Source: Sedimentisphaerales bacterium
Lineage (GTDB): Bacteria > Planctomycetota > Phycisphaerae > Sedimentisphaerales > Anaerobacaceae
Direction of reading: 5' to 3'
Assembly (NCBI GenBank): GCA_963708075.1
Contig: OY970194.1
Coordinates: 384,001 to 448,000, forward strand
DNA: 64,000 nucleotides
How positions within the stretch are numbered: position 1 is the first letter of the stretch; each line of letters starts with the position of its first letter. The position numbers were made by a program, and so were the translations under genes. The notes beneath the pieces are model-generated. The model saw nothing but the letters and a program-made list of their open reading frames with translations. It was not told where the DNA came from and ran no database searches. This document shows positions 29,695 through 33,779 of the stretch, piece after piece.

Positions 29695-31020
29695 TCAGCC
29701 GTTGAGGGTCCAGCCTTCGCGGTACTTGCGGCTGAGCAGGGCGTTGGCCTCGTCGCTGTTCGTGACGCGGCCGGCGACCGGGTCGTAGTCCAGCTTCTTG
29801 CCGACGCGGTAGGCCACCAGGCCCAGCAGCATCATCTCGATCATCGTGCCGCCGTAGTCGAAATCGCACGAGGTCTTGAGATTGCCCTTGCAGGCGTTGG
29901 TCCATTCCTTCTGGAAATGTCCGACGTCGGGGAGCATCTTGTCCTTCGGCCGACGCTCATAGTAGCTCATGTCCGCGTTGTCGCCGAAGGGGATGATCAT
30001 GCGCGAGCCAAAATCGGCGATCAGGAAGCCCTTGGAGCCCTTGAACATCGCGCCGTGCCCGATCTTGTTCAGATCGACGGATTCCCTCGGCGACCTGGGC
30101 ATGGCGCCGCCCTCGTACCAGCCGACGCGGATGGCGGGCCGCCAATCGTTGGCCGGCAGGTCGAAATGGCTCTCCATCTCGACGGGCGTGACCTCCGGGT
30201 TGAACGGGTCGCCTTTGGCTTCCGCCGTGGTCGGCAAGCCGTAACCGATCGCGTCCCAGACGATGTCCATCGTGTGGCTGCCCATATCGCCGATCTGCCC
30301 GCTGCCGAAGTCCCAGTACATGTTCCACTGGAGGCAATTGGCGCCGGGGCCGCCGCTGAAATACTCCGGGTTGTACGGGTGCATGGGCGCGGGGCCGATC
30401 CACAGATCGTAATGCAGGTGGGCCGGCGGGTCGCCTGCGGCGGCCGGGTAGCCCTTGCGGCGGATCTGGCGATTGCCCCAGGCATATGCGTCGCTGAGGG
30501 TGCCGATCGCGCCGTCGCGGATCAGCTCCTGCACGCGATTGAAGTTCGGGTTCGCGTGACGCTGCATCCCGACCTGCGTCGCCAGCTTGTTCCTTTTCTT
30601 GAGCCAGTTCGCGCGGACGATGCGGGCTTCCTCGACGCTGTTGGCCAGCGGCTTCTCGCAGTACACGTGCATGTCCCGGTTCAAGGCCCAGTTGGCGACG
30701 AACGCGTGCGTGAAGTCCGTCGTGCAACAGACCACGGCGTCGATGCCTTTCTGATCGAGGCACTTGCGCCAATCGACGTACGTCTTGGCGTTCGGGAATC
30801 GCTTGGCGCCGAACGCCAGGTGCTCTTCGTTCACGTCACACAGGGCGACCACGTTCTCGCTCGCAAGGGCGTCGAAGTGGGCCTCGCCCCGGCCCCAAGT
30901 CCCGATCAGGGCCACGTTGAGCTTGTTGCTGGGGGCGTTGGCGCCGCTGAGCACGCCGCTGGGCAGGATGAGCCATCCGGCCCCGGTCGCTGCGGTCTTG
31001 AGGAAGTCACGTCGTTTCAT
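29695..31020 (-). CDS. Tat-exported Gfo/Idh/MocA family oxidoreductase
   Basis: 'MKRRDFLK', 'HVYCEKPL', 'TQVGMQ', 'YDLWIGPAP', 'FGSGQIGDMGSH'. Confidence 0.92.
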   Translation of the reverse strand: MKRRDFLKTAATGAGWLILPSGVLSGANAPSNKLNVALIGTWGRGEAHFDALASENVVALCDVNEEHLAFGAKRFPNAKTYVDWRKCLDQKGIDAVVCCTTDFTHAFVANWALNRDMHVYCEKPLANSVEEARIVRANWLKKRNKLATQVGMQRHANPNFNRVQELIRDGAIGTLSDAYAWGNRQIRRKGYPAAAGDPPAHLHYDLWIGPAPMHPYNPEYFSGGPGANCLQWNMYWDFGSGQIGDMGSHTMDIVWDAIGYGLPTTAEAKGDPFNPEVTPVEMESHFDLPANDWRPAIRVGWYEGGAMPRSPRESVDLNKIGHGAMFKGSKGFLIADFGSRMIIPFGDNADMSYYERRPKDKMLPDVGHFQKEWTNACKGNLKTSCDFDYGGTMIEMMLLGLVAYRVGKKLDYDPVAGRVTNSDEANALLSRKYREGWTLNG

Positions 31021-31133
31021 GCGGTCTTCTCCTTCTATCTGCGGTTCTCTCGTCACACAAACCCATCGCCGGACCACCTCCGGCCGCCAGCAGTCTATGT
31101 CCCCCCGCCCCCCAAAGCAAGCCCGCCGGCGGA

Positions 31134-31925
31134 AATTGGCTTTGTTTCACACCGCCGGGTCCGCCACCATGTGGCCCAGCCGCCCTCGGCTGGGATCACC
31201 CCCGGGGGCGGGGGTGCTACCTGACACTTCCTCCAATTGGCTTTGTTTCGTACATCGGCCCTCGCGTGGGCTGTGCCTGTCACCTGCCCGGCACGCCAGA
31301 TTGGCTTTGTTTCACACAACCATCCGCGCTCCCGACTTTGCCCCAGATGCCCCATTCGTCCCAAATTTGGCTTTGTTTCGCACGATCCGCGGTCGCGTCG
31401 CCTGCCGGGCGCTCCCTGGTGCTCGCTCTTGAAATTGGCTTTGTTTTGCACAATCGCCCGTCCCCGAATTGGCTTTGTTCCGCACGGTGGCCTATGTCTT
31501 TCATTCCCGTCTTCCAATCCGCATTCCGTAATCCGAAATCCGCAATCCCAAGGGGCCCCCCCGTCCCCGCCCAATTGGCTTTGTTTCGCAAACTGCCCGT
31601 CCCTGTTGCCGAACACTCGCCACGGCACACACTCGTATCCTTCATTCCGCACTCCGCAATCCGGATTCCGCACTCCCAAGGCCCTTGGCCCCGTGAATTG
31701 GCTTTGTTTCCCGCAGTGTCAACCTGTGCCTTTTCCTCATAACTCTTTTTCTGACCGGAACTTATCCTCAATTAGTCCTCGCCAGAATTGGGTTTGTTTC
31801 ACATAGTGACGATCAGCGAATTGGCTTTGTTTCGCGCAGACAGGGGACGCTAGGCTGCCGGAGACAATCCGCAATCTGCAATCCCCAATCCGCAATCGCT
31901 CTGGCAATTGGCTTTGTTTCGCATA
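31134..31925 (-). repeat. array of 11 co-oriented ~19-nt repeats (+ strand AATTGGCTTTGTTTCGCAC) with unique spacers
   Basis: Copies start at 31134, 31235, 31299, 31365, 31433, 31467, 31573, 31696, 31786, 31819 and 31906. Confidence 0.95.
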
Positions 31926-32064
31926 ATCAGGTCATTTGCCTCCAGCAAGCAGGAGGGCGTGACTGCCCCGGCGTCCCGCCGGTTGTCGAGGATGTGCGCG
32001 TCACCGGCCACGGTCAGCCCCTCCGAATTGACCATCTTACCATTCGCTATTCAGTTGCATTAGC

Positions 32065-32093
32065 ATCATACAAACATTAGCATTTTCCGTCAA
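32065..32093 (-). promoter_or_regulatory. sigma70-type promoter pointing into the repeat array
   Basis: Minus strand TTGACG-N17-TATGAT. Confidence 0.7.
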
Positions 32094-32294
32094 GTGAAAT
32101 CCTGTCGATGCACAGATTTGTGTCGGCGGTAAGTCGTTGCGTGACACGGATTTACACGAGATGTCACGGATTCTCATATCATTCCCGCGAAGGGCCTGCC
32201 CTCGACCTGATCGGGGGCGGGAATCCAAGATTCATTGTTCTGCCACAGAGGGCACCGAGAACACAGAGAGGGATGTCTCGGGTTGGGTGCCATG

Positions 32295-33779
32295 CAACGC
32301 CGTGAACTTAAGCGGCCTTGGTCTTTTCGTAAATCCTTTTGGCACAGCGTTTTTCCTTCTCATTGGCGGGGCGGATTCTCGGTAGGCCCGCGGGAGGATC
32401 GTTCTTCTTGTGCGGCCAATGCCGAGCCTGTTTCGGTCCGCTTCGGACGTAGGCGTCTTTGACTGCCTTTTGCAGTTGAGCCCGAAGACCGGCTCTTCGA
32501 GCAGACCGCCCGAGAGGATGCATGATGCGCCGGACCACCCGCAGCGATTCGCATACGCTCCAGCATAGCGGATCCCGCTTGGCCCCGATCAATGCCTCCA
32601 CGCTCCACAGACCGACTACCAGATACGCCAGCATCGCCCAGTCCAGTTCCCGCCGGGCCTCCTGCGGACAGCCGCTTCGCATCTTGTGCTGCTCCAGCGT
32701 CCGTTTGAACGAGCGATAGAAGACCTCGTGGCCCCACCGCATCCGATAGAACTGACCGATCTGCCGATCCGTCAGGGCCTGCTCCTCCATCACGCTGGTC
32801 ACCAGGTACACCGGTGAATGATGCGCCTGCTCGATCCGGATCAGCCGCAGTTGCAACGGCGGACACTTCGATTGTTTTCGCGTCGGCCACAGCCACACCA
32901 ACTCGCCCTTGATCTTGACGTGCACATCCGTCAGACCCGTCAGCAGCGTACGGTTCGAACCCATCCGCACCAGAACCTGCACTCCACGATCTACCAGCGA
33001 TCGCAGAAGATCAAAACCCGTAAAGCCGGCGTCCGCCACCAGCAAAGACCTGCTCGGCAGCAATCCCGCCATCGAGTGCAGGTGCGTCTGCTCCGACTGA
33101 ATCCCCGCTCCGATCCGCCACGCCCACGGCAGTCCTGTGCCCAGGTGGTACAGACTGGTCAACGACAACTGCGGCCCCGTCTTCTTGCGACCTGCACAAC
33201 CGAAGCTCTTTTGGTTCCTGGCGGTCCGGGGGACTTCGATCCGTGTGCCATCGGCCGAAAAGGCCAACCAGCCGTCCCGCCGCCAGAACGCACCGGCGAT
33301 GCGACGATGGTGACGCCGAAGGTGGTGTTTGATGGCTTGGCGTTGTTTGCCATTGATCCTGCGGCGGGCCTTGATGTATCCCTGGTAGGTCCCGCCGGGA
33401 CGTTTGCGGCCTCGATACATCTCGATCAGCCCCTGGCGGGCGTGAGTGAACCGATCCTTCAGTGTCCGCGACGGCTCCAACGCCATCAGCACAGACAGGT
33501 AGATCACATACTCCAGCGTCCATCGGCCCACACGACAACCGCTCGTGGACCCCAGAGCCGCCAGAGCCGAAAAAAGGGGGCCATGAAAATCTGACTCATG
33601 GCCGAACGCAACGGCTGCCGATGAAAATGCGTAGAGCCTCTGCTCTCGATCTTTCGAGTGTTCATTGGACACCTCCTTGCTTTGTTGTCCGGACAAATAC
33701 AACATCGGCAAGGAGGCTCTATTCTCTTGCGTTTCCTTCACTTGCGTCTTCTATAATCCCTGAAGAGTTCACGGCGTTG
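32295..33779 (-). mobile_element. IS4-type insertion sequence, 1485 bp
   Basis: 14-bp terminal inverted repeats CAACGCCGTGAACT / AGTTCACGGCGTTG; 9-bp target duplication GGTGCCATG at 32286-32294 and 33780-33788. Confidence 0.92.
32308..33741 (-). CDS. IS4 family DDE transposase (true start uncertain)
   Basis: 'SADGT', 'LLVADAGF', 'YRMRWGHEVFYRSFK' (Y-R-W-E-K signature). A better RBS (AAGGAGGT) with ATG at 33665 is out of frame. Confidence 0.9.
   Translation of the reverse strand: MKETQENRASLPMLYLSGQQSKEVSNEHSKDREQRLYAFSSAAVAFGHESDFHGPLFSALAALGSTSGCRVGRWTLEYVIYLSVLMALEPSRTLKDRFTHARQGLIEMYRGRKRPGGTYQGYIKARRRINGKQRQAIKHHLRRHHRRIAGAFWRRDGWLAFSADGTRIEVPRTARNQKSFGCAGRKKTGPQLSLTSLYHLGTGLPWAWRIGAGIQSEQTHLHSMAGLLPSRSLLVADAGFTGFDLLRSLVDRGVQVLVRMGSNRTLLTGLTDVHVKIKGELVWLWPTRKQSKCPPLQLRLIRIEQAHHSPVYLVTSVMEEQALTDRQIGQFYRMRWGHEVFYRSFKRTLEQHKMRSGCPQEARRELDWAMLAYLVVGLWSVEALIGAKRDPLCWSVCESLRVVRRIMHPLGRSARRAGLRAQLQKAVKDAYVRSGPKQARHWPHKKNDPPAGLPRIRPANEKEKRCAKRIYEKTKAA

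Follow-up and report, generated by a model that had tools for sequence, protein, structure and literature searches.

What is a run of short, co-oriented DNA repeats with its own promoter, and where does it come from? This question is raised by an array of 11 copies of a 19-nucleotide (nt) motif in the 64,000-nt stretch of a Sedimentisphaerales bacterium genome studied here (assembly GCA_963708075.1, contig OY970194.1, positions 384,001 to 448,000 of the forward strand), the whole of which we refer to as the window. Comparisons within this genome and with relatives indicated that the array is apparently a gene-less, promoter-bearing derivative of a multicopy element. The full form of this element carries a gene for an uncharacterized helical protein with the repeats downstream, and the gene and motif recur together in several phyla.

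The window array is one of many in the genome

A pattern search of the window for AATTGGCTTTGTTTCGCAC at three or fewer mismatches returned exactly 11 copies, all on the plus strand, with starts at 31134, 31235, 31299, 31365, 31433, 31467, 31573, 31696, 31786, 31819 and 31906. The distances between starts (101, 64, 66, 68, 34, 106, 123, 90, 33 and 87 nt) were those given in a preliminary description of the array, and shuffled versions of the window held a mean of 0.01 copies, with 11 reached in none of 100 shuffles. The promoter that had been reported to point into the array (Table 1) was also borne out: it was the sole promoter-like site called by a consensus scan of positions 30900–32500, and its hexamers are conserved in five dispersed arrays. 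No terminator-like site was called on the minus strand in the same scan, and an Rfam search of the window region together with six related loci returned nothing relevant.

The genome is a single 7.5-megabase (Mb) contig of 60% G+C. At the same mismatch threshold it holds 273 motif copies, 42 of them exact, while 99, 88 and 44 have one, two and three mismatches, respectively. These copies form 37 arrays of 3–13 copies, four pairs and 11 singletons (52 clusters), and every one of the 41 multi-copy clusters has a single orientation. Copies are spaced 33–375 nt apart (87, 63 and 34 recur), and the spacings are mixed when taken modulo 3 (97/64/56). Conservation along the motif is uneven: the core TTGGCTTTGTTT is 99% invariant over the 273 copies, and values of 95–100% in the core compare with 58–85% at the ends, which argues for constraint over plain decay. 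The flanks are weakly conserved, with GGSCGATT 5' of the sense motif and a G-run 3' of it. A 17-mer searched at one or no mismatch was present in all 23 other genomes of the genus (1–506 copies each), in the one sister-genus genome and in one of 16 genomes from other families of the order.

Judged by a rough home-made gene caller, the arrays are intergenic and the sense strand faces the 5' end of a co-oriented gene in 27 of 37 cases, while on the other side the numbers are as at random, with 19 genes co-oriented and 18 divergent. There was no replichore bias, the sense strand being the leading one in 16 of 37 arrays. Among the 148 open reading frames (ORFs) nearest the 37 arrays we found no recurrent family and no integrase, reverse transcriptase or Cas protein; transposase-type genes lie near 6–8 of the arrays.

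Full elements encode an uncharacterized helical protein

All-against-all comparison of the array flanks revealed that about 880 base pairs (bp) upstream of a subset of the arrays are shared, the GTGCG... strand being taken as sense. The shared block encodes a protein that begins MGSQARVAANRRNAAKSTGPRTSEGKAVAAQNAVKHGL. Searches with tblastn located nine loci for this gene in the genome, one of them frameshifted, and in all nine a co-oriented array follows 32–212 nt downstream; one copy of the gene lies at genome 2340421–2341011. A specific gene family thus accompanies the arrays, whereas the lack of one had been named in the preliminary description as a refuting outcome, and the suggestion that the array belongs to an uncharacterized system held up. 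The protein (about 170–190 amino acids (aa), all-helical) has no Pfam or NCBIfam family. The only PHROGs match was a weak one of unknown function (E = 0.018), and PADLOC gave a weak, non-significant match to PDC-S05 (E = 0.049). An AlphaFold model based on a 127-sequence alignment was all-helical with a mean predicted local distance difference test score (pLDDT) of 83. Foldseek found no match to it in the PDB at E ≤ 0.001, and the best hits of VIA-align against 48,161 chains (Z 8.2) were generic helical hairpins.

The family is large. HMMER searches of 1.84 billion representatives identified 24,564 clusters at E ≤ 0.001 and 7,310 at E ≤ 1e-10. The source names listed for relatives were all "hypothetical protein", the nearest named sources are metagenome bins of Sedimentisphaerales and other Phycisphaerae, and a protein atlas held unnamed clusters only. 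None of 58 longer homologues had a Pfam domain. Within the order the gene is patchy, with 1–10 matches in each of 15 of the 61 genomes sampled, and among the IMG/VR viral contigs a relative is encoded at only 21 loci, so that this is not a typical phage gene.

The full elements have conserved sequence at both ends. About 100–130 nt upstream of the start codons at, for example, genome positions 940929 and 2341011 lies (G/T)(A/T)AAC-N16/17-CGTCT, which is unlike the sigma-70-like promoter found in the subfamily of the window and resembles the consensus of promoters for extracytoplasmic function (ECF) sigma factors. The 3' terminal block (genome 942087–942230 and 2339460–2339598) is a conserved segment of about 130 nt with GCGG(T/C)TCGAATCCGCCACCG, similar to the T-arm and acceptor strand of a tRNA. 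A tRNA gene was considered for this block on account of the T-arm-like GCGG(T/C)TCGAATCCGC, but ARAGORN called none in three full elements. At two loci in other genomes (L030 and L039) a real tRNA gene follows the motif units.

Gene and motif form a module in several phyla

We collected 80 loci of the gene from other genomes, comprising Planctomycetota of several orders, Acidobacteriota, Alpha- and Deltaproteobacteria and Actinomycetota, and counted the degenerate core A[AC][ACG]AA[GC]CC[ACG]A in comparable lengths of sequence. Downstream of the gene there were 138 copies in sense and 10 in antisense orientation; upstream there were 4 and 6, respectively. At least one downstream sense copy was present at 60 of the 80 loci, and four of the 20 without one have less than 130 nt of downstream sequence. 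These comparisons identify the gene and a downstream motif in sense orientation, with the core AAAC(A/G)AA(G/C)CCAAT, as a module whose sequence is conserved across several phyla.

In AT-rich relatives the protein frame stops 12–90 nt past the conserved domain, before the motif, and the motif bounds a unit of about 90 nt with conserved blocks (...CAAATGAACGTAA...GATTATGAAAAT...) that occurs one to three times in tandem. Nine of 30 aligned units carry frame-breaking indels between blocks that are still conserved, and several have early in-frame stops, so that the conservation is at the level of nucleotides and not of a peptide. On visual inspection, there often seems to be a short, variable hairpin ahead of the second motif of the unit.

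The surroundings of the module vary. Among 140 ORFs at 28 of the loci elsewhere there was no conserved neighbour gene and no partition ATPase, and the small ORFs downstream at other-genome loci have no protein in common. Defence-type neighbours (TIR, AbiEii, RVT_1, SMODS, HEPN_AbiU2 and KAP) occur at 7–9 of the 28 loci. At loci L024 and L045, short ORFs a few hundred nt downstream of the motif units resemble AP2-type DNA-binding domains by eye (..GRFDDQIEAAVAYD..).

Gene-less arrays retain the element's expression signals

About 28 of the 37 arrays, including that of the window, have no gene. Twelve of the gene-less arrays match the 5' leader of the element by BLASTN, and four more match the first 20–32 residues of the protein (tblastn, E < 0.01). 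With the window's array as a marginal case, the leader or initial codons joined to the first repeat are thus recognizable in about 16 of the gene-less arrays. In the window the leader is followed by a remnant N-terminus (AGDAHILDNRRDAGAVT...) of about 29 codons after the GTG, in a frame that stops at 31850 (ORF 31850–32035). Its alignment to the N-terminus of the family begins at the GTG at 32011, covers residues 1–32 at 31% identity (E = 0.025, tblastn against a small database) and ends at the first repeat. Alignment of five dispersed and diverged gene-less arrays, the window's and four others, left four conserved islands, namely the -35 box, the -10 box, the ribosome-binding site and the start codon. 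From these alignments we infer that the gene-less arrays are internal-deletion derivatives in which the gene body was lost and the expression signals were retained, and that the retained signals are probably still under selection. The codons for ..NAAKS.. (GCCGCGAAATCC) resemble the motif (GTGCGAAACAAAGCC), a similarity that we note only as a lead to a possible cause of the recurrent junction.

Arrays were inserted recently beside host promoters

The gene downstream of the window array encodes a Gfo/Idh/MocA-family oxidoreductase that has orthologues of 76–86% identity in 19 congeners. None of the 19 orthologous upstream regions, 16 of which have 1,500 nt of sequence, contained the motif within 1.2 kilobases (kb). 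Arrays that lie upstream of typA and glyA in our genome were similarly absent from all 19 and all 22 orthologous regions, and where they were matched the regions compared include those of the array-rich species G005, G007, G013 and G019. At all three genes homology with the relatives resumes at the host promoter. That of the oxidoreductase gene was read by comparison with the orthologous upstream regions and was not called by the consensus scan; CTTGATNG...TAnnAT stands at the equivalent place, without an array, in all 19. It begins 13 nt past the last repeat, marking the boundary of the insertion, and the corresponding distance from last repeat to -35 box at typA is 38 nt. At the level of sequence, then, the comparisons show the arrays to be species-specific insertions that end 13–40 nt upstream of a host -35 box, and their absence from the orthologous sites of three host genes indicates that the insertions are recent.

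Both junctions were visible at glyA, where a 3.96-kb insertion (genome 211898–215860) is absent from eight of eight aligned congeners. Inverted GTGGAGTTCTGC ends and a duplication of 7 bp (TGAATAA) delimit it; two ORFs, of 223 and 141 aa, lie within it, and the array is 48 nt inside one end. The GTGGAGTTCTGC ends belong to a separate family of miniature inverted-repeat transposable elements (MITEs) of about 255 bp; the glyA array is either the cargo of another element or landed inside one. At least 10 copies of the MITE family were detected in which both ends could be paired, with GTGGAGTTCTGCAAAATGG as terminal inverted repeats and target duplications that are AT-rich and about 7 bp long; examples lie at genome positions 313067–313319, 2454710–2454963 and 5111897–5112150.

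Spacers consist in part of the genome's own repeats

We extracted 221 spacers of 14–356 nt genome-wide. Clustering left 151 singletons and revealed spacer families common to 11, 7, 5 and 4 arrays, which consist of (GCGGAWT)n and (GAAGTGT)n heptad runs, hairpins similar to repetitive extragenic palindromes (REP) and a tandemly duplicated 68-nt unit. Searched against the genome, 115 spacers matched only themselves, 98 resembled other places in arrays and 75 matched sequence outside arrays, some of it dispersed repeats with more than 130 copies. The spacers of the window had been described as unrelated to one another. This is mostly the case, but three of the ten share the low-complexity module (GCGGAWT)n and four fall into repeat families found in other arrays or dispersed in the genome, consistent with the earlier remark that several contain other genomic repeats; the remaining six are unique, two of them being too short for testing. 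The further idea that the spacers are unique guide-like segments did not survive these numbers, and a search of window positions 31100–32100 against 50,697 phage and 72,556 plasmid records gave no match at E ≤ 0.01.

The heptad runs (GCGGATT/GCGGAAT)n lie at window positions 31840–31880, 31500–31560 and 31640–31690 and recur in spacers of at least 11 arrays and elsewhere in the genome; (GAAGTGT)n is a second heptad type, which forms inverted pairs. The REP-like palindromic repeat CCATCGGCAAGC..GCTTGCCGCTGCCACCC is found at more than 130 places in the genome, occurs inside arrays at genome positions 941599–942040 and 2339761–2340341, and is also embedded in an 87-nt tandem unit of some arrays.

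A clustered regularly interspaced short palindromic repeats (CRISPR) array and an integron cassette array were both considered and rejected, in agreement with the preliminary description, which had noted the lack of cas genes. CRISPR arrays were taken to have repeats of about 23–55 nt, regular spacing and spacers of similar length. Co-oriented direct repeats, dissimilar intervening sequences and a promoter on the leader side are features the window array shares with them, whereas its repeat is only 19 nt, its spacing is irregular and its spacers are partly genomic repeats, and there are 37 such arrays. The whole genome gave no match to Cas1 (PF01867) in a search that was positive in 7 of 14 control genomes. 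An integron, which would have a tyrosine-recombinase (IntI) gene alongside and palindromic attC sites, is contradicted by the absence of Phage_integrase among the 148 ORFs nearest the arrays and by the motif, which as read from its sequence is neither palindromic nor self-complementary.

A possible role for the arrays

Based on these results, we propose that the array would be transcribed on the GTGCGAAACAAAGCCAATT strand from its own promoter, and that the transcript would display the motif as repeated single-stranded sites between structured spacers. In partition-function folding the predicted unpaired probability in the sense RNA of the window array was 0.60 for the motif and 0.34 for the spacers. 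The motif was predicted to be more accessible than the spacers in all 37 arrays in sense (0.60 vs 0.36), and no difference was seen in antisense (0.43 vs 0.41). The family's protein may recognize the motif as its target in cis, probably on RNA; an RNA target is supported indirectly by the sense-strand rule across phyla, by the retention of the promoter and by the sense-only accessibility. On this view a gene-less array would serve either as a decoy with many binding sites or as a leader, responsive to the protein, from which transcription continues into the gene downstream.

We give an even chance to this account as a whole, in which the window array is a gene-less array of a multicopy element and is transcribed as a multi-site RNA bound by the family's protein, and place most of the weight on its descriptive part. 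The RNA-binding mechanism taken by itself is perhaps possible, and we advance it tentatively. We are more doubtful still of a wider version, a two-part system in several phyla in which the helical protein would recognize the A/C-rich cis motif on its own transcript while the motif part, amplified in this genus into some 28 promoter-driven, gene-less, multi-site RNAs just upstream of host promoters, would serve to titrate the protein or would bring housekeeping genes (glyA, typA, an EF-G paralogue and oxidoreductases) under its control.

Several observations weigh against the proposal of a transcribed, protein-bound array. The modelled fold is a generic helical hairpin, which gives no function, and RNAalifold detected no consensus structure in the alignment of 30 units of about 90 nt. 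The accessibility result follows in part from the A-rich composition of the motif, and the orientation counts rest on rough gene calls. As to descent from the full element, the homology of the window's N-terminal remnant is modest and only marginally significant. The five near-identical full elements showed no inverted repeats or target duplications at their ends, only a loose CACCC(C)AT direct similarity on both sides. In addition, empty-site comparison in five congeners mostly failed, with identity at 65–70% and synteny broken, and glyA alone gave both junctions.

Further observations concern translation. In seven of the eight intact gene copies the frame runs on without a stop across the entire array and finishes in a conserved end, ..RPRVAYHxHxxARSY*. 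Among 44 in-frame motif copies, frame 0 (AKQSQ) is used 34 times, frame 1 (CETKP) 10 times and frame 2 never, a usage that looks like selection on translation and not only on RNA or DNA. The eight copies are not independent cases, since five of them are about 90% identical. Predicted public proteins from related GC-rich genomes have the same tails and the same end. One open frame covers 80–100% of each of the nine gene-linked arrays, and the full elements of this clade thus seem to keep a frame open across the array. Over all 37 arrays the longest open frame spans at least 95% in 14 in sense and 10 in antisense. On either strand, stop triplets occur at about half the expected frequency or less (0.018 and 0.014 vs 0.038 expected).

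Weighing the alternatives

These open frames are the substance of an alternative in which the arrays make up a repetitive tail at the C-terminus of the protein and the gene-less arrays are functionless, decaying pseudogenes, the motif being conserved through youth or homogenization by recombination. It would account for the frame use, for the tails called as protein by public gene predictors, for the contrast between the nine gene-linked arrays and the gene-less ones, of which only about 6 of 28 have a frame covering at least 95%, and for a window array that has stops in every frame and lies inside a species-specific insertion. We nevertheless consider it unlikely, because one and the same motif yields AKQSQ, CETKP or, among AT-rich relatives, QNKPN, with no conserved peptide; because the protein of those relatives ends before the motif; because stop depletion is equal on both strands and motif conservation is position-specific; and because the promoter hexamers are kept in diverged gene-less copies. 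A simple repeat protein was rejected, given that the window array has stops in all frames (the longest open frame covering 0.74 of it in sense and 0.77 in antisense) and that two frames are used for the motif of gene-linked arrays; the family has no peptide motif that is conserved throughout. The earlier statement that the repeat falls in different reading frames was thus upheld by the mixed spacings and the stops. The conclusion drawn from it, that a protein repeat is unlikely, stands for the window array and for the conservation at DNA level, but has to be qualified for the intact genes, most of which are open through their arrays, if not in one frame. The tails resemble those of PE_PGRS/PPE_MPTR-type families, which are likewise multicopy and combine a conserved helical N-terminal domain with a variable tail of repeats that was originally recognized at the DNA level. 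Here, by contrast, more than one frame is used to read the repeat, the repeat falls outside the ORF in AT-rich relatives, and promoter-driven, gene-less arrays of it persist. In predictions such as P0001, P0004, P0012 and P0032, among others, arrays of GC-rich relatives are translated as low-complexity tails of 100–250 aa, and because gene callers translate the arrays, database entries of the family combine a genuine domain with repeat DNA that may not be translated.

If the repeats were instead sites on duplex DNA for the family's protein, in the manner of centromere-like arrays, iterons or operator arrays, their transcription would be incidental. A gene followed by a direct-repeat array is also how plasmid partition sites such as sopB–sopC are arranged, an array follows every one of the nine genes, and the arrays lie just upstream of host promoters. 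Binding to DNA would, on the other hand, need neither the sense-strand placement (138 vs 10) nor the retained promoter, ribosome-binding site and start codon; neither a partition ATPase nor a recurrent partner appeared among the 148 ORFs near the 37 arrays or the 140 at the 28 loci elsewhere; and the spacing is irregular (33–375 nt). We regard this as improbable. A harmful protein neutralized by the repeat RNA in the manner of a type III toxin–antitoxin, with gene-less arrays as orphan antidotes, would explain why the gene body was repeatedly lost while promoter-driven arrays were kept, and would suit the patchy, multicopy distribution, the defence-type neighbours at 7–9 of the 28 loci and the weak PADLOC match. 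It is very unlikely all the same: the gene order is the reverse of that in ToxIN-type loci and the repeats are neither identical nor tandem, an all-helical hairpin is no known toxin fold, and the PADLOC match is non-significant. A ToxIN-like system proper, with near-identical tandem RNA repeats ahead of an endoribonuclease toxin gene, was rejected, as the repeats here lie downstream of the gene with unrelated spacers between them and the protein is all-helical. The idea that the repeats are recombination or adaptation sites and the spacers captured DNA has in its favour the heterogeneity of the spacers, 115 of the 221 being unique in the genome, and the co-orientation of the repeats within every array. 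The capture or CRISPR-like reading is nonetheless unsupported given that spacers belong to genomic repeat families (75 of the 221 being copies of dispersed repeats), that the window array has no phage or plasmid match and that the genome lacks Cas1. With spacers of 14–356 nt, a non-palindromic repeat and no integrase, reverse transcriptase or Cas among the 148 nearest ORFs, it is largely refuted and we attach almost no probability to it. Reading the motif itself as a sigma-54 or ECF promoter was likewise rejected by eye, its spacing being off by one and a -10 partner being absent.

Relation to known repeats and significance

In their behaviour, the gene-less arrays of this element most resemble two known kinds, the modular intergenic repeats (BOX, NIME, MIRU) and mobile elements reduced by deletion. 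Pneumococcal BOX, neisserial NIME/dRS3 and mycobacterial MIRU are similarly built of short conserved units between variable modules from a limited set, are intergenic and number dozens per genome; they are co-oriented with neighbouring genes, vary between species and can influence adjacent genes. The 37 intergenic arrays, with spacer families common to 11, 7, 5 and 4 of them, form a mosaic of this kind. Unlike those repeats, they are attached to a protein gene (9 of 9), have their own promoter, ribosome-binding site and start codon, and have a core that is conserved beside the gene across phyla; to our knowledge, neither descent from a gene, nor expression signals of their own, nor a cross-phylum core has been described for BOX, NIME or MIRU. 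With MITE-like, non-autonomous derivatives the family has in common a few full copies among many shorter gene-less copies that retain both ends, species-specific insertion, and numbers that differ widely between congeners (1–506 for the 17-mer). The gene-less arrays retain leader or N-terminal codons, and no array was found at the 19, 19 and 22 orthologous sites. In contrast to MITEs, no terminal inverted repeats or target duplications of their own were found, and the protein resembles no transposase. Sponge RNAs of the CsrB/RsmZ type are comparable by analogy only: the arrays likewise come with a promoter of their own and repeat a short motif that is predicted to be unpaired between structured segments, but at about 37 loci as opposed to 1–3, and with an A/C-rich motif in place of GGA, and in the arrays expression, binding and any partner protein are putative.

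Full-text literature searches on repeats in Sedimentisphaerales and Planctomycetes brought up nothing on this repeat or gene family, though such a report may still be in print. We have not found described the combination of a widespread uncharacterized gene family, a conserved downstream motif across phyla and amplification into promoter-driven, gene-less arrays. A conserved nucleic-acid motif behind an unnamed family of about 24,500 clusters provides a concrete handle on the function of the protein. Since the arrays of GC-rich genomes are translated by gene callers, public databases probably contain numerous "proteins" that are artefacts or have been misread. Should the arrays prove to be expressed and bound, they would constitute a family of regulatory RNAs or leaders generated by the decay of a selfish gene; if not, they would still be a well-defined new interspersed repeat family. 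The repeat family accounts for the long "empty" stretches between genes, and for assembly breaks, in this group of Planctomycetota.

Features of the window and neighbouring genes

The coordinates of the array and of the features around it are collected in Table 1.

Table 1. Features at the window array (positions are those of the 64,000-nt window).
Feature	Position	Strand	Description
Gfo/Idh/MocA-family oxidoreductase	29698..31020	minus	Pfam PF01408 and PF19051; downstream neighbour, outside the element
Inferred promoter of the oxidoreductase gene	31092..31120	minus	-35 TTGCTT, 17 nt, -10 TAGACT
Repeat array	31134..31924	minus	11 co-oriented copies of the 19-nt motif; sense strand GTGCGAAACAAAGCCAATT
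Spacers (10)			68, 14, 71, 104, 87, 15, 49, 47, 45 and 82 nt
Leader and remnant N-terminus	31925..32064	minus	Ends directly at the first repeat
Ribosome-binding site GGAGGGG	32024–32018	minus	5' of the GTG start at 32011–32009
Sigma-70-like promoter TTGACG-N17-TATGAT	32065..32093	minus	Points into the array; 10/12 matches in the consensus scan
DDE_Tnp_1 transposase gene (insertion sequence)	32308..33741	minus	PF01609, E = 9.7e-16; upstream neighbour

As far as can be told, the DDE_Tnp_1 gene is not part of the element. It lies directly upstream of the promoter region of the array, and similar transposase genes are found near several of the other arrays.

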